This document shows positions 1 through 16,492 of a stretch of DNA of 19,527 nucleotides, piece by piece. Made by a program: the position numbers and the translations under genes. Each line of letters begins with the position of its first letter. Within the stretch, counting starts at the first letter, position 1. Below the pieces are notes generated by a model that saw nothing but the letters and a program-made list of their open reading frames with translations, was not told the DNA's origin and searched no databases. Source of the DNA: a virus; the UHGV virus genome UHGV-0119084; one strand, given 5' to 3'.

Positions 1-870
1 CGCCTGGACGGCCACTTCTGAGAAAAGGTATTTACACAGAATCCTGAACAGGCTCATTATGGTTTCTCCGCCAAGAATCTCTTTGCATTTATCAAGTGTT
101 TCCTTCATTGATATCCCGAGAGCATCAACATGCAATGTTGTTGGGATGGCAATTTTTACGCCTGTTTTGCTTTGCTCGACATAAAGATATCCATCTACGA
201 TATCAGACCACTTCATTTCGCATAAATCACCAACTCGTTGCCCGGTAACAACAGCCAGTTCCATTGCAAGTCTGAGCCAACATGGTGATGATTCTGCTGC
301 TTGATAAATTTTCAGGTATTCGTCAGCCGTAAGTCTTGATCTCCTTACCTCTGATTTTGCTGCGCGAGTGGCAGCGACAGGGTTTGTTGTTATATGGCCT
401 TCAGCTATTGCCTCTCGGAATGCATCGCTCAGTGTTGATCTGATTAACTTGGCTGACGCCGCCTTGCCCTCGTCTATGTATCCATTGAGCATTGCCGCAA
501 TTTCTTTTGTGGTGATGTCTTCAAGTGGAGCATCAGGCAGCCCCCTCCTTATTGCTTTAATTTTGCTCATGTAATTTATGAGTGTCTTCTGCTTGATTCC
601 TCTGCTGGCCAGGATTTTTTCGTAGCGATCAAGCCATGAATGTAACGTAACGGAATTATCACTGTTGATTCTCGCTGTCAGAGGCTTGTGTTTGTGTCCT
701 GAAAATAACTCAATGTTGGCCTGTATGGCTTCAGTGATTGCGATTCGCCTGTCTCTGCCTAATCCAAACTCTTTACCCGTCCTTGGGTCCCTGTAGCAGT
801 AATATCCATTGTTTCTTATATAAAGGTTAGGGGGTAAATCCCGGCGCTCATGACTTCGCCTTCTTCCCAT
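1..870 (-). CDS. int: Lambda-type tyrosine integrase, partial (runs off the window start); the 3' portion below about position 55 diverges from the lambda Int sequence I recall
   Basis: Minus-strand translation from the ATG at 870 gives MGRRRSHERRDLPPNLYIRNNGYYCYRDPRTGKEFGLG... and continues through ...KEILGGETI, matching my recollection of lambda Int; after that it reads MSLFRILCKYLFSEVAVQA with no stop before the edge. The start overlaps the xis stop, as in lambda. Not in the ORF track because no stop codon lies inside the window. Confidence 0.85.
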   Translation of the reverse strand, partial: MGRRRSHERRDLPPNLYIRNNGYYCYRDPRTGKEFGLGRDRRIAITEAIQANIELFSGHKHKPLTARINSDNSVTLHSWLDRYEKILASRGIKQKTLINYMSKIKAIRRGLPDAPLEDITTKEIAAMLNGYIDEGKAASAKLIRSTLSDAFREAIAEGHITTNPVAATRAAKSEVRRSRLTADEYLKIYQAAESSPCWLRLAMELAVVTGQRVGDLCEMKWSDIVDGYLYVEQSKTGVKIAIPTTLHVDALGISMKETLDKCKEILGGETIMSLFRILCKYLFSEVAVQA

Positions 871-1066
871 TTCTGATCCTCTTCAAAAGGCTACCTGTTA
901 CTGGTCGATTTAAGTCAACCTTTACCGCTGATTCGTGGAACAGATATTCTCTTCCATCCTTAACCGGAGGAGGGAATATCCTGCATTCGCGCACCCATCG
1001 ACGAACTGTTTCAAGGCTTCTTGGGCGTCGCTGGCGAGCGTTCCACTCCTGAAGTGTCAAGTACAT
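848..1066 (-). CDS. xis: Excisionase Xis
   Basis: 72-aa ORF MYLTLQEWNARQRRPRSLETVRRWVRECRIFPPPVKDGREYLFHESAVKV... matches lambda Xis as recalled; overlaps the int start. Confidence 0.93.
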   Translation of the reverse strand: MYLTLQEWNARQRRPRSLETVRRWVRECRIFPPPVKDGREYLFHESAVKVDLNRPVTGSLLKRIRNGKKAKS

Positions 1067-6381: not shown

Positions 6382-6651
6382 TTATGACTTATTGGTTTTA
6401 GCTCTATCATGCTGATCGCGAATAAAGTCAGCGAGTTTAAGCATTAAATCTTCCGTCATGCGAATTGTTGCAATGTTGTACTTTACGTTTTCAGTGTCAT
6501 TACTACCATCAGCGCCCCATTCTGTAACATGCTGAAAGAAAGATATGGAGCCTAAGCGATCGTCATCTTCCCCAAAAGATGAATATCCAAATGCATCAGC
6601 ATATGCATCTACACAGTTATTTGATTTTTTTATAAGTTTTTTATCACTCAT
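6382..6651 (-). CDS. Uncharacterised small acidic protein (89 aa); gene A of the rex-slot cassette
   Basis: ORF MSDKKLIKKSNNCVDAYADAFGYSSFGEDDDRLGSISFFQHVTEWGADGSNDTENVKYNIATIRMTEDLMLKLADFIRDQHDRAKTNKS. An RBS-like GGAAAGG lies about 6 nt upstream of the ATG; Asp-rich; C-terminal predicted strand-helix (IATIRM then TEDLMLKLADFIRDQ). AT-rich. No family recognised. Confidence 0.55.
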   Translation of the reverse strand: MSDKKLIKKSNNCVDAYADAFGYSSFGEDDDRLGSISFFQHVTEWGADGSNDTENVKYNIATIRMTEDLMLKLADFIRDQHDRAKTNKS

Positions 6652-6730
6652 TTTTGCCTTTCCCGTAATGTTATTTTTATAAAGAATTCTTTCAGCGCAT
6701 TACCCAAAAGCCTCATCAGCACGCAGCTGA

Positions 6731-7420
6731 TTATCCGTGTTTCCTATACGTCTGCGGCATACTGCCAATAACCTTCCCGAAAATGAACACCCGGTTCATC
6801 TCGTCTTTCTCGATCGGGTCCCACGGTGAGTAGCTCTTGTTATCAGAGATAACCAGTAGCTTATCTTTCATCATTTGCAGGCGCTTTACATGGGCTGTGT
6901 CGTCGTACAGAAACGCATAGATACCATCACCGTCGAAAGATTTAACCGTGATATCAACGAACAGCAGATCACCTGGTTCGATCGTTCCTGACATGCTGTC
7001 ACCACGCACGTTAATGATGCGGATATTTTCCGCCTTCCTGCCATCGAACATGTGACGAGCATCGTCAAACGAGTACTCAACCGAGCGTAGAACTTCTACA
7101 AATTCACGGTTGATGACTCCCGGCCCGGCACTCACTTCTATATCAAGAACGTCAATCTTAAAGTATTTGGAATGGCTGACAGTTGATTGTATTGGTTGCA
7201 CTGTACTGTCTGACATATTTCCAACGCCAGAAGATAACCATTCTGCGCGCACACCCAAAGCGTTCGCGATCTCCACGATTTTAGTTGTTTGGTTAGCTTT
7301 CCCTGTTTCGATTTTCTGAATAGCAGCTTGGCTAACCCCGACCAAATCCCCAAGCGCCTTTTGTGTAAGGCCTCGCGCTAATCTGGCTTCTTTAAGTCTT
7401 TCTGAGAGTGTTGTTTTCAT
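6731..7420 (-). CDS. cI: CI-type prophage repressor: N-terminal HTH (Cro/C1 type) plus C-terminal S24/LexA-like autopeptidase domain
   Basis: MKTTLSERLKEARLARGLTQKALGDLVGVSQAAIQKIETGKA... followed by GDSMSGTIEPGDLLFVD (Ser) and AHVKRLQ (Lys), the S24 catalytic dyad context. I place the start at the ATG at 7420 (229 aa) because the ORF-track 251-aa frame reads through the promoter region. Confidence 0.85.
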   Translation of the reverse strand: MKTTLSERLKEARLARGLTQKALGDLVGVSQAAIQKIETGKANQTTKIVEIANALGVRAEWLSSGVGNMSDSTVQPIQSTVSHSKYFKIDVLDIEVSAGPGVINREFVEVLRSVEYSFDDARHMFDGRKAENIRIINVRGDSMSGTIEPGDLLFVDITVKSFDGDGIYAFLYDDTAHVKRLQMMKDKLLVISDNKSYSPWDPIEKDEMNRVFIFGKVIGSMPQTYRKHG

Positions 7421-7426
7421 AGTCCA

Positions 7427-7497
7427 AATGTACAACCAAGGTTTTATTCCATCAAACGAAAATGGTTGTTGACTAAAAACAACCATAGTTTTAATCT
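7427..7497. promoter_or_regulatory. Divergent pRM/pR promoter-operator region
   Basis: pR (plus): TTGACT 7469..7474, 17-nt spacer, TAATCT 7492..7497, then a GGAGG RBS and the cro-like ATG at 7525. pRM (minus): TTGATG (plus 7450..7455), 17-nt spacer, TACATT (plus 7427..7432), ending 6 nt before the cI ATG, so the cI mRNA would be leaderless as in lambda. A 9-bp inverted repeat ATGGTTGTT-gactaaa-AACAACCAT (7462..7486) overlaps the pR -35 and spacer; a further ACAACCA copy lies at 7432..7438. Confidence 0.55.
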
Positions 7498-7524
7498 TGA
7501 TTCAAATTAACCACGGAGGTTGTT

Positions 7525-7665
7525 ATGAATCCAGCTATCAAAACAGCGATCAATATCGTTGGTTCACAAAAGAAACTGGGCGCTGCCTGCGAAGTTTCAC
7601 AGCAGGCCGTCTATAAGTGGCTTCACAACAAAGCAAAGGTAAAGGCGTTTACCCGAATCAGGTAA
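7525..7665 (+). CDS. cro: Cro-like HTH protein (P22 Cro/YdaS-like), 46 aa, probably C-terminally truncated
   Basis: Translation MNPAIKTAINIVGSQKKLGAACEVSQQAVYKWLHNKAKVKAFTRIR; the HTH pattern (G.Q..LA...VS..AV..W) resembles P22 Cro and Rac YdaS. The last 10 codons read through iteron-like repeats and the stop lies in ori-like sequence. Confidence 0.6.
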   Translation: MNPAIKTAINIVGSQKKLGAACEVSQQAVYKWLHNKAKVKAFTRIR

Positions 7666-8132
7666 ACACAAAAGACAAACTAACAAAAGACAATATAAAA
7701 CCTTTTTCGTCCGAGAATTCTGGCGAATCCTCTGACCAACCAGAAAACGATCTTCCTGTGGAGAAACCAGATGCTGCAATTCAGAGCGGCAGCAGGTGGG
7801 GGACAGCAGAAGACCTGACCGCCGCAGAGTGGATGTTTGACATGGTGAAGACCATCGCGCCATCAGCCAGAAAACCGAATTTTGCAGGGTGGGCTAACGA
7901 TATCCGCCTGATGCGTGAACGTGACGGACGTAACCACCGCGACATGTGCGTGCTGTTCCGCTGGGCATGCCAGGACAACTTCTGGTCCGGTAACGTGCTA
8001 AGTCCGGCCAAACTCCGCGACAAGTGGACCCAACTCGAAATCAACCGTAACAAGCAACAGGCTGGTGTGACTGCCAGCAAACCAAAACTCGACCTGACGA
8101 ACACTGACTGGATTTACGGGGTGGAGCTATGA
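7617..8132 (+). pseudogene. O: Replication initiator O, C-terminal (P-interacting) portion only; the N-terminal iteron-binding domain and cII are absent
   Basis: The frame encodes ...SSENSGESSDQPENDLPVEKPDAAIQSGSRWGTAEDLTAAEWMFDMVKTIAPSARKPNFAGWANDIRLMRERDGRNHRDMCVLFRWACQDNFWSGNVLSPAKLRDKWTQLEINRNKQQAGVTASKPKLDLTNTDWIYGVEL, matching the lambda O C-terminal half as recalled. It opens only at a GTG inside the cro-like ORF with no RBS. A full O would be about 300 aa. Confidence 0.7.
7638..7666. repeat. Iteron-like repeats (GGTAAA x2 and inverse TTTACC) directly upstream of a lambda-ori-like AT-rich stretch; probable origin remnant
   Basis: GGTAAAggcgTTTACCcgaatcaGGTAAA followed by cacaaaagacaaactaacaaaagacaatataaaacc, which resembles the A/T-rich part of lambda ori (inside the O gene) as I recall it. 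Confidence 0.35.
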
Positions 8133-8830
8133 AAAACATCGCCGCACAGATGGTTAACTTTGACTGTGAGCAGATGCGCCGGATCGCCAACAACATGCCG
8201 GAACAGTACGACGAAAAGCCACAGGTACAGCAGGTAGCGCAGATCATCAACGGTGTGTTAAGCCAGTTACTGGCAACTTTCCCGGCGAGCCTGGCTAACC
8301 GTGACCAGAATGAACTGAACGAAATCCGCCGCCAGTGGGTTCTGGCTTTCCGGGAAAACGGGATCACCACAATGGAACAGGTTAACGCTGGAATGCGCGT
8401 AGCCCGTCGGCAGAATCGACCATTCCTGCCATCACCCGGGCAGTTTGTCGCCTGGTGCCGGGAAGAAGCATCTGTTAACGCCGGGCTGCCAAACGTCAGC
8501 GAGCTGGTTGATATGGTTTACGAGTATTGCCGGAAGCGTGGCCTGTATCCGGATGCAGAGTCTTATCCGTGGAAATCGAACGCGCATTACTGGTTGGTTA
8601 CCAACTTGTACCAGAACATGCGGGCCAATGCGCTGACTGACGCGGAATTACGGCGCAAGGCTGCCGATGAACTGACCTGTATGACAGCGCGAATTAACCG
8701 TGGTGAGACGATACCTGAACCAGTAAAACAACTTCCTGTTATGGGCGGTAGACCTCTAAATCGTGCACAGGCTCTGGCGAAGATCGCAGAAATTAAAGCT
8801 AAGTTCGGACTGAAAGGAGCAAGTGTATGA
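8129..8830 (+). CDS. P: Replication protein P (DnaB helicase loader)
   Basis: 233-aa ORF MKNIAAQMVNFDCEQMRRIANNMPEQYDEKPQVQQVAQIINGVLSQLLATFPASLANRDQNELNEIRRQWVLAFRENGITTMEQ...; near-identical to lambda P as recalled; 4-nt overlap with the O stop. Confidence 0.95.
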   Translation: MKNIAAQMVNFDCEQMRRIANNMPEQYDEKPQVQQVAQIINGVLSQLLATFPASLANRDQNELNEIRRQWVLAFRENGITTMEQVNAGMRVARRQNRPFLPSPGQFVAWCREEASVNAGLPNVSELVDMVYEYCRKRGLYPDAESYPWKSNAHYWLVTNLYQNMRANALTDAELRRKAADELTCMTARINRGETIPEPVKQLPVMGGRPLNRAQALAKIAEIKAKFGLKGASV

Positions 8831-9129
8831 CGGGCAAAGAGGCAATTATTCATTACCTGGGGACGCATAAGAGCTTCTGTGCACAGGACGTTGCCGCGGT
8901 AACAGGCGCAACCGTAACCAGCATAAATCAGGCTGCGGCTAAAATGGCGCGGGCAGGAATCCTGGTCGTTGATGGTAAGGTCTGGCGAACGGTGTATTAC
9001 CGGTTCGCTACCAGAGAAGAACGGGAAGGAAAGGTGAGCACGAATCTGATTTTTAAGGAGTGTCGCCAGAGTGCCGCGATGAAACGGGTATTGAGGGTAT
9101 ATAAAAGAACATCAATGGGAACACAATGA
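8827..9129 (+). CDS. ren: Ren protein (lambda ren-like, Rex-exclusion resistance)
   Basis: 100-aa ORF MTGKEAIIHYLGTHKSFCAQDVAAVTGATVTSINQAAAKMARAGILVVDGKVWRTVYYRFATREEREGK... matches lambda Ren as recalled; overlaps the P stop. Confidence 0.88.
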   Translation: MTGKEAIIHYLGTHKSFCAQDVAAVTGATVTSINQAAAKMARAGILVVDGKVWRTVYYRFATREEREGKVSTNLIFKECRQSAAMKRVLRVYKRTSMGTQ

Positions 9130-9196
9130 TGAAACAGGTGAGTTGAGTTCAAACTGTAGTACAATTCTCTCCAGTTTGAACAGGAAAGAATATGCT

Positions 9197-9529
9197 ATGA
9201 ACCCTTATATTTATCTTGGTGGTGCAATACTTGCAGAGGTCATTGGTACAACCTTAATGAAGTTTTCAGAAGGTTTTACACGGTTATGGCCATCTGTTGG
9301 TACAATTATTTGTTATTGTGCATCATTCTGGTTATTAGCTCAGACGCTGGCTTATATTCCTACAGGGATTGCTTATGCTATCTGGTCAGGAGTCGGTATT
9401 GTCCTGATTAGTTTACTGTCATGGGGATTTTTCGGCCAACGGCTGGACCTGCCAGCCATTATAGGCATGATGTTGATTTGTGCCGGTGTGTTGGTTATTA
9501 ATTTATTGTCACGAAGCACACCACATTAA
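9197..9529 (+). CDS. emrE: Small multidrug resistance (SMR) efflux transporter EmrE, 110 aa, four TM helices
   Basis: MNPYIYLGGAILAEVIGTTLMKFSEGFTRLWPSVGTIICYCASFWLLAQTLAYIPTGIAYAIWSGVGIVLISLLSWGFFGQRLDLPAIIGMMLICAGVLVINLLSRSTPH matches E. coli EmrE; start set at the internal ATG preceded by AGGAAAG. The ORF-track frame begins 18 codons earlier. Confidence 0.93.
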   Translation: MNPYIYLGGAILAEVIGTTLMKFSEGFTRLWPSVGTIICYCASFWLLAQTLAYIPTGIAYAIWSGVGIVLISLLSWGFFGQRLDLPAIIGMMLICAGVLVINLLSRSTPH

Positions 9530-9559
9530 AATAATTTGTTTCTAAACGACTAAAATATG

Positions 9560-9590
9560 GAGGCTCTTATATTTATATGAGCCTCGTTTT
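9560..9590 (+). terminator. Intrinsic terminator downstream of emrE
   Basis: GAGGCTC-loop-GAGCCTC hairpin followed by GTTTTATGCTTTTT. Confidence 0.55.
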
Positions 9591-9783
9591 ATGCTTTTTG
9601 TTAATGTCTTTATTTTTTATGTATTCTTTTGTGCTTTCAAGATTATGGCGTAAGAAAATTGCAATACGATTATTGTTGTATATTCAAGATAATGTGACCT
9701 TAATTGTCTTTTTAAATAAAAATTAAACAAAAATTATATCCCACCACTAAGGTTTATAAAAGCATACGTTAGCAGGTGTCACC

Positions 9784-11310
9784 ATGAAAAAAGCCATAGC
9801 ATATATGCGATTTTCATCACCAGGTCAGATGTCTGGTGACTCATTAAACCGACAGAGAAGACTTATTGCTGAATGGTTAAAGGTAAATAGTGATTATTAT
9901 CTTGATACCATAACATATGAAGATTTAGGATTAAGTGCATTCAAAGGAAAGCATGCACAATCAGGAGCTTTTTCGGAATTTTTAGATGCTATAGAGCATG
10001 GTTATATATTGCCAGGAACTACATTGTTAGTTGAAAGTCTGGACAGACTTTCAAGAGAAAAAGTCGGTGAAGCGATTGAACGTCTGAAATTGATTTTGAA
10101 TCACGGTATTGATGTTATAACTCTTTGCGACAATACAGTCTATAATATTGACTCTTTGAATGAGCCATATTCATTAATAAAAGCCATACTTATAGCACAA
10201 AGGGCAAATGAAGAAAGCGAGATAAAGTCAAGTCGGGTTAAATTATCATGGAAGAAAAAACGGCAGGATGCAATGGAATCAGGTACGATTATGACGGCGT
10301 CTTGTCCGAGATGGCTCTCCTTAGATGACAAAAGAACGGCTTTTGTTCCAGACCCCGACAGGGTGAAAACTATTGAGCTAATTTTTAAACTCAGGATGGA
10401 AAGGCGCTCATTGAATGCAATAGCCAAGTATTTAAATGATCATGCTGTAAAGAATTTCTCAGGAAAAGAAAGTGCATGGGGACCTTCTGTAATTGAAAAA
10501 TTATTAGCGAATAAAGCTCTGATAGGTATATGCGTACCTTCATATCGTGCAAGAGGGAAAGGGATAAGTGAAATCGCTGGCTATTATCCCAGAGTTATAT
10601 CAGATGATTTGTTTTACGCTGTACAGGAAATTCGGTTGGCACCTTTTGGTATTAGCAATAGTAGCAAGAATCCTATGCTAATAAATCTACTTCGAACAGT
10701 TATGAAGTGTGAGGCTTGTGGTAATACCATGATTGTTCATGCGGTATCTGGAAGTTTGCATGGCTATTATGTTTGTCCGATGAGAAGATTACATCGATGT
10801 GACAGGCCATCAATAAAAAGAGATTTGGTTGATTATAATATCATTAATGAATTGCTTTTTAATTGTAGCAAAATTCAACCAGTTGAAAACAAGAAAGATG
10901 CTAATGAAACTTTAGAGTTAAAAATTATTGAGCTTCAGATGAAAATTAATAATTTAATCGTTGCATTGTCTGTCGCGCCTGAAGTTACCGCTATAGCAGA
11001 GAAAATAAGACTATTAGATAAGGAATTACGAAGGGCTTCGGTATCATTGAAAACTTTGAAGAGTAAAGGTGTAAATTCATTCAGTGATTTTTATGCTATT
11101 GACTTAACCAGTAAAAATGGACGAGAGTTATGCCGTACACTTGCCTATAAAACATTCGAAAAAATCATAATTAATACGGATAATAAAACCTGTGATATCT
11201 ATTTTATGAATGGCATTGTTTTTAAACACTATCCTTTAATGAAAGTAATATCCGCCCAGCAGGCGATAAGTGCTCTCAAATATATGGTTGATGGTGAGAT
11301 TTATTTCTAA
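9784..11310 (+). CDS. ybcK: Large serine recombinase (resolvase-type N-terminal catalytic domain, Cys-rich zinc-ribbon and coiled-coil C-terminal region); DLP12 YbcK-like
   Basis: 508-aa ORF; N-terminus MKKAIAYMRFSSPGQ... has the serine-recombinase catalytic motif context; Cys cluster CEACGNTMIVHAVSGSLHGYYVCPMRRLHRC; coiled-coil segment LELKIIELQMKINNLIVALS. Very AT-rich gene and flanks. Confidence 0.8.
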   Translation: MKKAIAYMRFSSPGQMSGDSLNRQRRLIAEWLKVNSDYYLDTITYEDLGLSAFKGKHAQSGAFSEFLDAIEHGYILPGTTLLVESLDRLSREKVGEAIERLKLILNHGIDVITLCDNTVYNIDSLNEPYSLIKAILIAQRANEESEIKSSRVKLSWKKKRQDAMESGTIMTASCPRWLSLDDKRTAFVPDPDRVKTIELIFKLRMERRSLNAIAKYLNDHAVKNFSGKESAWGPSVIEKLLANKALIGICVPSYRARGKGISEIAGYYPRVISDDLFYAVQEIRLAPFGISNSSKNPMLINLLRTVMKCEACGNTMIVHAVSGSLHGYYVCPMRRLHRCDRPSIKRDLVDYNIINELLFNCSKIQPVENKKDANETLELKIIELQMKINNLIVALSVAPEVTAIAEKIRLLDKELRRASVSLKTLKSKGVNSFSDFYAIDLTSKNGRELCRTLAYKTFEKIIINTDNKTCDIYFMNGIVFKHYPLMKVISAQQAISALKYMVDGEIYF

Positions 11311-11774
11311 ATAATGATCTCGGATTTTAAGTTATGCTATGGTGATAAAGTGCAAGACAGAATTAATTATCTTTGACGAAACTTAATGGGTAATTACTTT
11401 GTTTGCTCCCACAAGCGAGTTTTGTACGGCTGTATTGGGGTAGTAAATGAGCTATACAATCTTAATCATTTGTTAGGTGAGAACTCTTGGTCGCAGATTC
11501 AAATACTGAAAATACGTGACAAATTATTATGAGCAAAATGGTGTATGTCACGTATTTTGAATGGTAGGTTAAAAAATAACACCGACTTTCGTAGGTATTA
11601 CTAATAATAAAGCAGAGTTTTTAGATAGTATCAATGTGCTTTGTGTATATTGTGGCAAATAATTGGGTTGGGGGTACAATTGTGATTGCTTTTGCATAAA
11701 CATTGCGCCTTTATGCATAATGAGATAAAGGAATATCAAATAAAATAACGATAGGTCATAACAAAGAGGTTTTT

Positions 11775-12326
11775 ATGAAAACACTTATCGTTTCAACTGT
11801 ATTGGCATTCATAACATTTTCTGCGCAGGCTGCAGCATTTCAGGTCACTAGTAATGAAATAAAAACAGGAGAGCAACTTACAACGTCTCATGTCTTTTCT
11901 GGATTTGGGTGTGAAGGTGGTAATACATCGCCCTCATTAACCTGGTCTGGTGTTCCTGAAGGTACCAAAAGCTTTGCCGTAACTGTATATGATCCAGATG
12001 CACCTACAGGCAGTGGTTGGTGGCATTGGACTGTTGTTAATATTCCAGCAACAATAACATATTTGCCCGTTGATGCAGGGAGACGTGATGGAACAAAACT
12101 GCCGACTGGTGCTGTTCAAGGCCGAAATGATTTTGGCTATGCTGGGTTTGGTGGCGCATGTCCTCCTAAAGGAGATAAACCACATCATTACCAGTTTAAA
12201 GTATGGGCTCTAAAAACTGAAAAGATTCCTGTAGATTCTAACTCCAGCGGAGCGTTAGTTGGTTATATGCTTAATGCTAATAAAATCGCAACCGCTGAGA
12301 TAACACCAGTTTATGAGATAAAGTAG
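11775..12326 (+). CDS. ybcL: Secreted PEBP/YbcL-family protein (UPF0098) with N-terminal signal peptide
   Basis: 183-aa ORF MKTLIVSTVLAFITFSAQAAAFQVTSNEI... with PEBP-like DPDAP and HHY motifs; matches DLP12 YbcL as recalled. Confidence 0.8.
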   Translation: MKTLIVSTVLAFITFSAQAAAFQVTSNEIKTGEQLTTSHVFSGFGCEGGNTSPSLTWSGVPEGTKSFAVTVYDPDAPTGSGWWHWTVVNIPATITYLPVDAGRRDGTKLPTGAVQGRNDFGYAGFGGACPPKGDKPHHYQFKVWALKTEKIPVDSNSSGALVGYMLNANKIATAEITPVYEIK

Positions 12327-12335
12327 GGTGAGAGT

Positions 12336-13133
12336 ATGCTGGCAAGAGGTAAGACTAACTTAAAGATCGAAGAAATACGGATGCATAAACATCATGAGAT
12401 TCATAGGGTTAAGCCTCTTATGCCAGCTTTGTGTCGTATCCGTCAGGGAAAGAAAGTTATCAATTGGGAGACGCATACTTTAACTGTTGATAATAATCAA
12501 ATAATATTATTTCCTTGTGGTTATGAATTTTATATTGAGAATTATCCTGAAGCAGGGCTTTATCTTGCAGAAATGCTTTACTTACCCATTGATTTAATTG
12601 AGAGTTTCCAAAAACTTTATACGGTAACTGATCAAATACGTAACAAAACAAGTTTCTTTTTACCTCAGAATCCTGAGTTAATATATTGTTGGGAGCAACT
12701 AAAAACATCTGTTTCCCGAGGCTTCTCAACTAAAATTCAGGAGCACTTAGCAATGGGCGTTCTACTTTCGTTAGGAGTGAATCATGTTAATCATTTACTT
12801 TTATCATATAGTAAACAATCATTGATAAGTCGTTGTTATAACCTGCTGCTATCCGAACCCGGCACAAAATGGACAGCAAACAAGGTTGCTCGATATCTCT
12901 ACATTTCTGTTTCTACATTACATCGCCGTCTAGCAAGCGAGGGGGTAAGTTTCCAAAGTATACTGGACGATGTGAGGTTAAATAATGCGTTGTCTGCTAT
13001 ACAAACGACGGTAAAACCTATAAGCGAGATTGCCAGAGAAAATGGTTATAAGTGTCCTTCTCGTTTTACTGAAAGATTTCATAATCGTTTTAATATAACA
13101 CCAAGAGAGATAAGAAAAGCTTCCAGAGAGTAA
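12336..13133 (+). CDS. ybcM: AraC/XylS-family transcriptional regulator (C-terminal double HTH)
   Basis: 265-aa ORF; C-terminal ...[75 protein letters not shown] is a typical AraC HTH region; matches DLP12 YbcM. Confidence 0.8.
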
Positions 13134-13197
13134 AAGTGTTTTAAGAAGGAGCAATTCTATCGATTTTGATTTTGGGAAATCAACACGGCATAATTAT

Positions 13198-13226
13198 GTC
13201 ACCGGAGCCTGAACAACTCCGGTGAC
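13198..13226 (+). terminator. Strong 10-bp hairpin downstream of ybcM; weak terminator candidate (poor U-tract)
   Basis: GTCACCGGAG-cctgaacaa-CTCCGGTGAC perfect inverted repeat, followed by only TTCTG. Confidence 0.3.
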
Positions 13227-13249
13227 TTCTGCGCTAAACGGGGACGTTT

Positions 13250-13351
13250 ATGCGCACATACAATCCAAACTCTCTTCTCCCTTCACAGATGCAGAAATGC
13301 ACCTGCAATTCTTTGCATCTAGCGTTTGACCTCTGCGGAGGTGAAGCGTGA
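13250..13351 (+). CDS. ylcH: Small protein YlcH-like (33 aa)
   Basis: Hand translation [33 protein letters not shown]; below the ORF-track cutoff; its stop overlaps the GTG start of ybcN. Confidence 0.4.
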
Positions 13352-13803
13352 ACCTCTCACAAGACGGCATCAAATTACATCGCGGCAACTTCACCGCTAT
13401 CGGTCGGCAGATCCAGCCTTATCTGGAGGAGGGCAAATGCTTTCGCATGGTGCTTAAACCGTGGCGTGAGAAACGCAGTCTTTCCCAGAATGCACTCAGC
13501 CACATGTGGTACAGCGAAATCAGTGAATACCTCATCAGCAGGGGTAAAACGTTCGCCACTCCAGCTTGGGTAAAAGATGCTCTCAAACACACATATCTCG
13601 GTTATGAAACCAAAGACCTGGTTGATGTCGTAACCGGTGATATCACCACTATCCAGTCGTTACGCCATACCTCCGATCTTGATACCGGAGAGATGTATGT
13701 CTTCCTGTGTAAGGTTGAAGCCTGGGCGGTGAATATTGGCTGCCACCTGACTATTCCGCAGAGCTGCGAGTTCCAGCTGCTCCGCGACAAGCAGGAGGCG
13801 TAA
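13348..13803 (+). CDS. ybcN: YbcN-family nin-region protein (reported DNA base-flipping protein)
   Basis: 151-aa [64 protein letters not shown]..., GTG start; matches DLP12 YbcN as recalled. Confidence 0.75.
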
Positions 13804-13973
13804 TGGCTACACCGCTTATTCGTGTCATGAACGGACACATCTACAGAGTATCAAATCGTCGTAAGCGTAAGCCTGAGCTGAAGCCATCCGAAATACCAAC
13901 ACTGCTCGGATATACCGCTAGCCTGGTTGATAAAAAATGGTTGCGACTGGCAGCAAGGAGGAATCATGGCTGA
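13803..13973 (+). CDS. ninE: NinE
   Basis: Hand translation [56 protein letters not shown] (56 aa); TAATG overlap with the ybcN stop. Confidence 0.75.
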   Translation: MATPLIRVMNGHIYRVSNRRKRKPELKPSEIPTLLGYTASLVDKKWLRLAARRNHG

Positions 13974-14256
13974 TTTGAGAAAAGCAGCGCGTGGTCGGGA
14001 ATGCCAGGTAAGAATCCCTGGCGTATGTAATGGCAATTCTGAAACGTCTGTACTGGCACATATCCGGCTGGCTGGATTGTGCGGTACCGGTATCAAACCG
14101 CCAGACCTGATTGCCACCATTGCATGTTCTGCCTGCCACGACGAAATCGACCGCCGCACACATTTTGTCGATGCTGCATATGCAAAAGAATGCGCGCTGG
14201 AAGGTATGGCGAGAACACAGGTTATCTGGCTGAAAGAGGGGGTTATTAAGGCGTGA
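13966..14256 (+). CDS. ybcO: YbcO (DUF1364 family, putative nuclease) of the nin region
   Basis: [67 protein letters not shown]... (96 aa from the internal ATG of the ORF-track frame); Cys/His-rich. Confidence 0.8.
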
Positions 14257-14615
14257 ATACCTACAGTATCACATTACCCTGGCCTCCGAGCAATAATCGC
14301 TATTACCGCCATAATCGCGGGCGCACGCACGTCAGTGCAGAGGGGCAGGCATACCGCGATAACGTCGCCCGAATCATTAAAAGCGCAATGCTGGATATCG
14401 GCCTGGCTATGCCTGTGAAAATCCGCATTGAGTGCCACATGCCGGATCGCCGTCGCCGTGACCTGGATAATCTGCAAAAAGCCGCTTTTGACGCACTCAC
14501 TAAAGCAGGTTTCTGGCTGGATGATGCTCAGGTCGTTGATTACCGCGTTGTGAAGATGCCTGTTACCAAAGGTGGGAGGCTGGAACTGACCATCACCGAA
14601 ATGGGGAATGAATGA
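14253..14615 (+). CDS. rusA: RusA Holliday-junction resolvase
   Basis: 120-aa [102 protein letters not shown]...; matches E. coli RusA. Confidence 0.93.
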
Positions 14616-14752
14616 TGTTTGAGTTTAATATAGCAGAACTTCTTCGCCACCGCTGGGGGCGTCTGCGCTTATATCGTTTCCCCGGTTCTGTTTTGACCGA
14701 TTACCGAATACTGAAGAATTACGCCAAAACCCTGACAGGAGCAGGAGTATGA
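14612..14752 (+). CDS. ylcG: Small protein YlcG-like (46 aa)
   Basis: Hand translation [46 protein letters not shown]; overlaps the rusA stop. Confidence 0.5.
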
Positions 14753-14837
14753 AGTCAGAGATAACAATCAACTAATACTGTTTTATTGATTTTTGCTTGT
14801 AATTGGCGTTCTGGTCTGATTTTTGTGGAGTAAGTTG

Positions 14838-15409: not shown

Positions 15410-16492
15410 TTAGAACTGGTAAACCATACCTACAGCAACGATATCATCGGTAGCAACGCCAGATGCTTTCGTGAAATCGCTCTTATCAATCAGGTTGATT
15501 TTGTAGTCAACAAAAGTGGACATATTTTTGTTGAAGTAATAGGTTGCACCTACATCAACATATTCAACCAGGTCCTGATCACCCCAAACACCCAAGTCTT
15601 TTCCTTTAGAATGCAGGTAAGCAACGGATGGACGCAGGCCGAAGTCGAACTGATATTGTGCAACAGCTTCGAAGTTTTGTGCTTTGTTGGCAATATGGTT
15701 ATTACCAAAAACAGTCATGTTCTGGGTTTCAGAATAGGTGGTGGCCAGATAGATGTTGTTCGCATCATATTTCAGACCAGCTGCCCATACTTCAGCATTT
15801 TGACCAGAAGCATTCAGACCGTTGTTACCGTAGATAACCTGATTATTAGTGCGATCAGATTTAGCATAGGTTGCACCTACACCGAATCCTTCATACTCAT
15901 AAGTAGTGGAGAAACCGAAACCATCACCATTAGCTTCAGTTACGTCAGTGCGGTCATTTTTACCCTGATACTGAGCAGCAAAGTTCAGACCATCAACCAG
16001 ACCAAAGAAGTCGTTGTTACGATAAGTTGCAACACCAGTGGTGCGACCAGTCATGAACACATCTGTTTGAGTCCAAGTGTCACCACCGAATTCTGGCAGG
16101 ACGTCAGTCCACGCACCGATGTCGTATGCTACACCGTAGTTACGGCCGTAATCGATGGAGCCGTAGTCACCGAATTTCAGGCCAGCGAAGGCAAGACGGG
16201 TTTTATCTTTGGAGGAACCTTGAGATTCAGCGCGGTTGCCTTTGAATTCATATTCCCACTGACCGAAACCAGTCAGTTGATCGTTGATTTGGGTTTCACC
16301 TTTGAAGCCAAGACGGGCATAAGTAGTATCACCATCATCTGCATCATTAGAGGAGAAGTAGTGCTTAGCATTAACTTTCCCGTACAGATCCAGCTTGTTA
16401 CTGTCTTTATTATAAATTTCAGCTGCCTGAGCAGACATCGCCATCAGTACTGATGCAGCTACAGCAGAAATTGCCACTGTTAATTTTTTCAT
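15410..16492 (-). CDS. nmpC: General outer-membrane porin (OmpC/OmpF/NmpC family), intact, with signal peptide
   Basis: 360-aa [50 protein letters not shown]... ending ...VAVGMVYQF (typical porin C-terminal Phe); matches NmpC/OmpD-type porins as recalled. Confidence 0.93.

Follow-up and report, generated by a model that had tools for sequence, protein, structure and literature searches.

An AT-rich accessory-gene island of a DLP12-type Escherichia coli prophage, probably assembled stepwise from three modules around a large serine recombinase gene

The 19,527-nucleotide virus genome UHGV-0119084 (the window, meaning here the whole stretch that was analysed) is a lambda-like Escherichia coli prophage, and the region between its ren and ybcN genes is an AT-rich island of accessory genes (emrE, ybcK, ybcL and ybcM) of the DLP12 type, a locus that is already known. 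Here this island was compared across 5,426 E. coli genomes, together with phages and IMG/VR loci. On this comparison the island is a patchwork of three separately inherited modules, emrE, ylcJ-ybcK and ybcL-ybcM, and it was likely built stepwise by phage mosaicism in a general cargo slot, the large serine recombinase YbcK not being its vehicle. Gene identities, composition, boundaries, module distributions and the integrity of and selection on YbcK were determined in the analysis, and the order of the assembly events is what we infer (coordinates of all features are collected in Table 1).

The modules showed separate distributions. The full island (type A) was present in ~671-675 of the 5,426 genomes and in the viable phages PhiR70_1, PhiR34_1 and PhiR68_2, and ybcK was present in 1,427 genomes overall. 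In type B, exemplified by the O157:H7 prophage at icd, ren-emrE-ybcK is followed directly by ylcH-ybcN; in type C, also found in the viable phages 1W, 4A7 and Perceval, ybcK is followed by an alpha/beta hydrolase gene, and in type D by a truncated antirepressor-like gene. Types B-D matched the window from 7637 to ~11320-11385 and again from 13164, and they would derive from an A-like form in which everything to the right of ~11385 was replaced. Type F consists of emrE-ybcL-ybcM without ybcK and, in 2,628 genomes, forms an islet in the chromosome with fliE on one side and a yedK remnant on the other (L002/L003 8001-10153; L064 2735-4888). It aligned to 9121-9536 and 11620-13350 at 89-92% identity with 4 unaligned nt between the blocks, and the nucleotide identities of the fliE copy to the island genes were 92.8% (emrE), 94.7% (ybcL) and 91.1% (ybcM). 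The two loci thus hold paralogous copies of the cargo, with the ybcLM promoter region and a terminal ylcH-like element common to both, but the fliE islet is without ylcJ-ybcK and lies in a decayed prophage relic adjoining flagellar genes, often followed by an IS200-family transposase gene. The 3' end of the islet holds a ylcH-like element, a Q antiterminator fragment and, in strain HH45, a porin gene, and the islet is therefore the relic of another lambdoid prophage. The HH45 fliE copy carries DLP12-type emrE, ybcL and ybcM alleles (identical proteins) around an islet-type spacer, which shows gene conversion between the two loci. Rearranged copies of the island were also seen: one IMG/VR locus (L054) lacks the counterpart of window 8996-10684 and has a truncated ybcK, and in strain TB4019 (H140) the ybcK region is interrupted by an IS3-family insertion.

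The island is set apart by composition and by its edges. The G+C content of 9130-13140 was 36.2%, versus 52.2% to its left (7600-9129) and 50.2% to its right (13348-14800), G+C at third codon positions was 25-34% for emrE, ybcK, ybcL and ybcM versus 52-61% for P, ren, ybcN and rusA, and the 4,011-bp stretch with the lowest G+C in the whole window begins at 9151. Homology with lambda stops at 9102, in the last ren codons, after which lambda continues directly into ninB, and the homology of PhiR26_1 to the window stops at 9093 and restarts at 13165, so that the final ~9-12 ren codons are island DNA. Between these points the PhiR26_1 record lists genes for PD-lambda-1 and Rha among others, and a further, different set of genes fills the interval in strain CM2010-0578/1; on the right, homology with other-cargo phages restarts at 13164/13165, lambda being the exception. 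Comparison with lambdoid phages that lack the island, which the original prediction had proposed as a check, thus placed the edges at 9093/9102 and 13164, and the resulting interval (~9094-13163) is close to the AT-rich insertion that had been read from the sequence at 9130-13140. The ren-ybcN gap is, on these alignments, a general slot for non-essential cargo, its edges being common to phages with unrelated cargo, and the ends of the island are therefore slot ends and not island-specific ends.

At the right edge, a boundary element present in every slot variant contains a promoter-like TTGATT-17-CATAAT at 13166-13194 and a 10-bp inverted repeat (GTCACCGGAG/CTCCGGTGAC) at 13198-13226; the phage 82 record X92588 annotates a putative -35/-10 and a 'possible regulator-binding site' upstream of orf33/ylcH. 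Within its cargo, PhiR26_1 carries this element once more, at 80% identity (L010 9707-9861), which suggests that the element may be a linker allowing cassettes to be swapped by homologous exchange. The next gene, ylcH, is the first of the conserved nin-type block and lies outside the island. The island resembles lambdoid moron slots in lying between conserved modules, in its atypical composition, in being dispensable (lambda and PhiR26_1 lack it) and probably in having its own promoters and a terminator-like hairpin, and the same slot in PhiR26_1 carries a gene annotated PD-lambda-1. It differs from the usual moron slots in being unusually large, composite (three modules) and in containing a recombinase gene.

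The original prediction had offered the recombinase as the possible driver or remnant of a nested mobile element that delivered the cargo. As an account of the whole 4-kb island, with emrE, ybcL and ybcM brought into the phage by YbcK as parts of one nested element, this is consistent with the low G+C and common orientation of the four genes and with the position of the recombinase gene within the block. However, thousands of genomes carry the modules apart from one another (the emrE-ybcL-ybcM trio without ybcK in the fliE islets, and ybcK with other or no downstream cargo in types B-D), the ends of the island are the generic edges of a slot also used for unrelated cargo, a search of the island flanks for att-like repeats found none, and the genes that neighbour YbcK homologues in other genera are unrelated to these. 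The module distributions therefore rule out one element bringing all four genes, and a whole-island element is highly improbable. What survives of the nested-element proposal is a narrower version confined to a 2,083-bp segment containing ylcJ and ybcK, which behaves as one clean insertion or deletion and is considered below.

YbcK itself showed every feature expected of the 508-aa recombinase with zinc ribbon and coiled coil that had been predicted, with Pfam, alignment, AlphaFold and Foldseek in agreement. In a 30-member family alignment the catalytic residues R9, S11, D87, R88 and R91 were invariant and the zinc-ribbon cysteines C309, C312, C331 and C339 near-invariant. The AlphaFold model (mean predicted local distance difference test score, pLDDT, 82) comprises a catalytic domain, a long E helix, a recombinase domain, a zinc ribbon, a coiled-coil helical hairpin (~residues 368-427) and, at the C terminus, a beta/alpha region, and its best Foldseek matches were the full-length SPbeta, Bxb1 and PhiC31 integrases (E = 5e-19 to 3e-13), at 14-19% identity to solved integrases. 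A phmmer search of the PDB with YbcK alone gave no match; the family profile was needed, and matched the solved structures of the SPbeta integrase SprA (E = 1e-16), TP901-1 and PhiC31. Alleles of ybcK are 0.6-3.3% apart in DNA and all have 508 codons, and the ratio of nonsynonymous to synonymous substitution rates (dN/dS) was 0.08-0.18. Judged by sequence and model, YbcK is a complete large serine recombinase that is not decaying and is maintained by selection; because the gene is intact and under purifying selection, the proposal that it is a remnant is unlikely.

The domain architecture, catalytic residues and fold and profile matches of YbcK are those of the phage serine integrases (PhiC31, Bxb1, SPbeta SprA and TP901-1). 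Unlike these, YbcK has no identified attP/attB or recombination-directionality factor, and its gene is internal to the prophage and not terminal, in a phage that has a tyrosine Int and Xis of its own; YbcK is therefore not needed as the phage integrase. The literature mentioning ybcK contained no demonstration of recombination by YbcK and nothing on its role; in K-12, Hfq binding to the ybcK DNA depends on polyphosphate (PMC10954037). Relatives sharing 41-61% identity were found in prophages and plasmids of other genera, none adjoining emrE, ybcL or ybcM. In Atlantibacter-like lambdoid prophages the relative occupies a similar place, the gene order being recombinase-DinI-DUF1367-NinG-Q and the cargo upstream being variable, and in Pantoea and Duffyella plasmids it stands alone among cargo genes. 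A GTDB genome scan with YbcK returned only E. coli and one Atlantibacter locus.

Several observations weigh against stepwise mosaicism as the full account of the island. Purifying selection implies that YbcK has some role, for which the mosaic explanation does not account. Relatives in Erwinia, Ewingella and Yersinia (L067 7001-9954, L068 7001-9159 and L018 7001-9232) lie at prophage ends, an integrase-like position, after tail-fibre assembly genes and adjoining host genes or another prophage. Downstream of ybcK, 199 nt from its stop codon, there is an unexplained inverted repeat (11509-11558). Finally, types A and F are colinear except for one clean indel within the emrE-ybcL spacer, the 2,083-bp segment (ylcJ, ybcK and 309 bp downstream), in which the recombinase gene lies 247 nt from the left end. 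This indel represents a single event, either insertion into an emrE-ybcLM ancestor or deletion from a type-A-like ancestor. Joining the flanks creates an imperfect palindrome whose centre is the joint (AAGCACA-N31-TGTGCTT), with 7-nt perfect arms and 15/26 symmetric positions (nominal P ~0.01-0.02 against random joins of island DNA), as an integrase target site might look.

The segment could accordingly be a small integrative element that YbcK inserted site-specifically into the emrE-ybcL spacer of an ancestral emrE-ybcL-ybcM phage, with ybcL-ybcM later lost from the other prophage types by cargo replacement; on balance this is unlikely. It would fit the clean single indel, whose joint has just 4 unaligned nt, the position of the recombinase gene close to one end and its inward reading direction, the palindromic reconstructed empty site and an intact YbcK under selection. 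Neither a target-site duplication nor terminal repeats, direct or inverted, were found at the segment, as serine recombinases predict, an absence compatible with such an enzyme and not evidence for it. Tn4451 (TnpX), Tn5397 (TndX) and SCCmec (Ccr) are small elements mobilized by serine recombinases, and a mini-element of this sort would resemble them as a short element moved by a large serine recombinase with no target duplication. A further parallel is an Atlantibacter-like locus (L066) in which a 59%-identical relative, a KGG gene and a DinI gene lie between 229-bp, 82%-identical direct repeats of the 5' part of the nin gene DUF1367 (6623-6851, left and truncated; 9609-9831, right and intact).

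Against this reading, the palindrome was assessed post hoc after several tests (P ~0.01), it is not preserved in the fliE islet, and the reciprocal attP-like joint has no symmetry (9/26 positions); among the reconstructed attB-, attP-, attL- and attR-like joints the attB-like one alone stands out, and weakly. A synthetic joint representing precise loss of the segment had its best match in the 5,426 genomes at 88.6% identity, from the diverged fliE islet, with no genome exceeding that value, and there is therefore no sign of recent excision. Searches for a circular form, alternative insertion sites and matched att sites of the segment found none, and ybcK follows emrE in every E. coli and IMG/VR locus inspected. 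Deletion between AATAAT microhomologies accounts for the same indel. As for L066, no upstream junction is common to the 60%-identity clade, the junctions lying at -10, -40, -59 and -120 nt in different contigs, and the DUF1367 repeat therefore has the appearance of ordinary mosaic joining. The repeats detected around the island or ybcK were short and at chance level; one candidate flank site, a 12/13 direct repeat (9534-9546 / 11299-11311), was rejected as no better than several unrelated pairs.

The inverted repeat downstream of ybcK is perfect over 13 nt (AAAATACGTGACA-N24-TGTCACGTATTTT), spans 50 bp and is restricted to type A. It raises the alternative that the phage has in YbcK a second working integrase, with this repeat as attP for another bacterial site. 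The attP sites of PhiC31 and Bxb1 provide the standard for such a comparison, and by this analogy the size and outer-arm symmetry of the repeat would be typical of a serine-integrase attP; its proximity to ybcK, the presence of both gene and repeat in viable phages and the prophage-end position of the relatives point the same way. However, ~700 genomes have ybcK with other downstream cargo and no repeat, and these ybcK alleles are as intact and as well conserved as the others. Across the 5,426 genomes no prophage was split at 11311-11774, every match of at least 95% identity being full length, and all 40 matches in an IMG/VR scan for the repeat were the same locus. No similar inverted repeats occurred near YbcK homologues at eight other loci, and partner half-sites of the 13-nt repeat in the window numbered 6 versus 7.1 expected. 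A second phage integrase is thus very improbable. As an RNA hairpin the repeat scored z ~ -4, and besides such a hairpin a YbcK site and an operator are candidate roles for it; an Rfam scan of the window gave no matches.

A broader possibility, though an unlikely one, is that the YbcK family comprises active integrases whose elements are very small and reside in accessory slots of lambda-like phages. The 2.1-kb ylcJ-ybcK segment and the ~3-kb Atlantibacter-like recombinase-KGG-DinI unit would then be phage-parasitic mobile DNA that may promote turnover of slot cargo, with the repeat at 11509-11558 as one site.

The cargo genes were assigned by Pfam and NCBIfam as had been predicted: an efflux pump of the small-multidrug-resistance family, the serine recombinase, a PEBP-family protein and an AraC-family regulator. 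EmrE is a classic efflux pump, and the window protein matched NCBIfam NF042984 over its full length (240.6 bits, cut-off 226) and has the essential Glu14 in its translation. Both long spacers are AT-rich as described in the original prediction, with G+C contents of 27% (9530-9783) and 33% (11311-11774), but the first, called non-coding there like the second, holds the annotated gene ylcJ along with a terminator-like hairpin (GAGGCTCTTATA/TATATGAGCCTC). This hairpin is followed by a T-rich tract and looks like a terminator for emrE, and it encloses the ribosome-binding site and start codon of ylcJ. Because ylcJ is frameshifted in one locus (L006) and truncated in the O157 prophage (L004), its protein-coding status is uncertain. 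A Rho/NusG-dependent terminator is reported upstream of ybcK in K-12 (PMC4150792).

Promoters, silencing and protein functions are taken from the literature. In K-12, both spacers contain sigma-70 promoters and H-NS marks, and the hexamers of the ybcLM promoter in the second spacer (GTGGCA-17-TACAAT), which lies in the part common to the fliE islet, are identical to those of the published promoter mapped by SELEX (systematic evolution of ligands by exponential enrichment) (PMC3946193). A promoter consensus scan gave 17 promoter-like sites versus 16.5 expected, which is chance level overall. In uropathogenic strains YbcL is a periplasmic effector that suppresses neutrophil migration (PMC4810123); position 78 of YbcL was T in all copies compared. 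YbcM is a regulator validated by ChIP-exo (chromatin immunoprecipitation with exonuclease treatment); it binds DNA upstream of ybcLM and influences survival under peroxide stress (PMC8464067). The dN/dS values of emrE, ybcL and ybcM against their fliE copies were 0.01-0.12, indicating purifying selection, which is consistent with functional cargo. With efflux by EmrE and these published roles of YbcL and YbcM, the suggestion that the cargo genes are candidates for lysogenic conversion is plausible.

According to the stepwise mosaic reading, emrE, ylcJ-ybcK and ybcL-ybcM would have had separate histories before joining, and assembly would have proceeded by homologous exchange in the conserved flanks with occasional illegitimate joints. 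The phage integrates by its own tyrosine integrase and excisionase, and YbcK is kept by selection without being the vehicle of the island. The island genes are all co-directional with the early-right transcript, so that this transcript must cross the island to reach Q. In K-12 the AT-rich DNA of the island is bound or silenced by H-NS (PMC3946193), Rho/NusG (PMC4150792) and Hfq-polyphosphate (PMC10954037). On the basis of the published promoters and Rho-dependent terminator, the genes would be expressed as accessory genes in the lysogen, contributing cationic-drug efflux through EmrE, the periplasmic PEBP protein YbcL and, in YbcM, a regulator of its own operon and of host genes.

The wider context is that of a DLP12-type prophage. 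Before P the window has, in order, int, xis, exo-bet-gam and a gene for a cI-type repressor; after P come ren, emrE, ylcJ, ybcK, ybcL, ybcM, ylcH and ybcN, followed by ninE, ybcO, rusA, ylcG, Q, a porin gene and lysis genes, and the RefSeq annotation gives the order ren-emrE-ylcJ-ybcK-ybcL-ybcM-ybcN. Over 9000-13400 the window matches E. coli strain 442/2 at 100% identity and E. coli K-12 MG1655 at 99.7%; in the latter the counterpart is b0543-b0546 of DLP12, where gene order is unchanged and the flanks are likewise renD, ylcH and ybcN; the single difference in YbcL is residue 94, I in the window and V in K-12. The locus is thus textbook E. coli K-12 and no new annotation is needed. Compared with K-12 DLP12, which has IS3 in ren and large deletions, the window prophage is more complete (int, xis, exo, bet, gam, cI, P, an intact ren and an intact porin gene), and IS5 lies in the porin region of K-12 DLP12. 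Relative to PhiR26_1 (L010 4978-6220) and strain 442/2, ~1.24 kb is absent from the window at a joint at 7637-7641 (7487-7700), comprising the 3' end of cro, the entire cII and, from the replication gene O, the initial ~524 nt, where the origin of lambda lies. The window prophage is therefore probably replication-defective.

Table 1. Features of the ren-ybcN region and of the surrounding prophage in the window (19,527 nt).
Feature	Position	Strand	Description
Tyrosine integrase	1-870	-	lambda-type; cut by window end
Xis	848-1066	-	
P	8129-8830		
ren	8827..9129	+	left flank; DNA homology with lambda / other-cargo phages stops at 9093-9102
Accessory-gene island	9094..13163	+	bounded by lambdoid phages without the island or with other cargo (L007, L010, lambda L023)
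emrE	9197..9529	+	small-multidrug-resistance efflux pump, 110 aa; Pfam Multi_Drug_Res 2e-35
2,083-bp segment	9537..11619	+	ylcJ, ybcK and 309 bp downstream; absent from fliE islet
Terminator-like hairpin	9560..9585	+	GAGGCTCTTATA/TATATGAGCCTC then T-rich tract; z = -3.2
ylcJ	9577..9726	+	annotated small protein, 49 aa; PF23688
ybcK	9784..11310	+	508 aa; Pfam Resolvase 5e-19, Recombinase 2e-14, Zn_ribbon_recom 8e-8
Inverted repeat	11509..11558	.	perfect 13-nt arms, AAAATACGTGACA-N24-TGTCACGTATTTT; 50 bp overall; type A only
ybcLM promoter	11652..11680	+	GTGGCA-17-TACAAT; in part common to fliE islet
ybcL	11775..12326	+	PEBP/RKIP-like, signal peptide; Pfam PBP, NCBIfam PRK09818
ybcM	12336..13133	+	AraC-family regulator; HTH_18/AraC
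Right boundary element	13166..13226	+	present in every slot variant
ylcH (orf33 of phage 82)	13250..13351	+	33 aa; between ybcM and ybcN
ybcN	13348..13803	+	right flank; weak NinB-family match
Porin gene	15410-16492	-	nmpC/ompD type, annotated ompC; intact, 360 codons

A second emrE-ybcL-ybcM copy thus lies by fliE in about half of E. coli and the copies exchange sequence, which matters for studies equating emrE, ybcL or ybcM with DLP12. The ren-ybcN gap is a defined slot for swappable cargo, bounded on the right by a conserved promoter-like element. A complete serine integrase that is under selection in viable phages already equipped with a tyrosine integrase is rare, and YbcK is such a case; its substrate, if found, would reveal either a phage-resident mini-element or a new recombinase/site pair for genome engineering.

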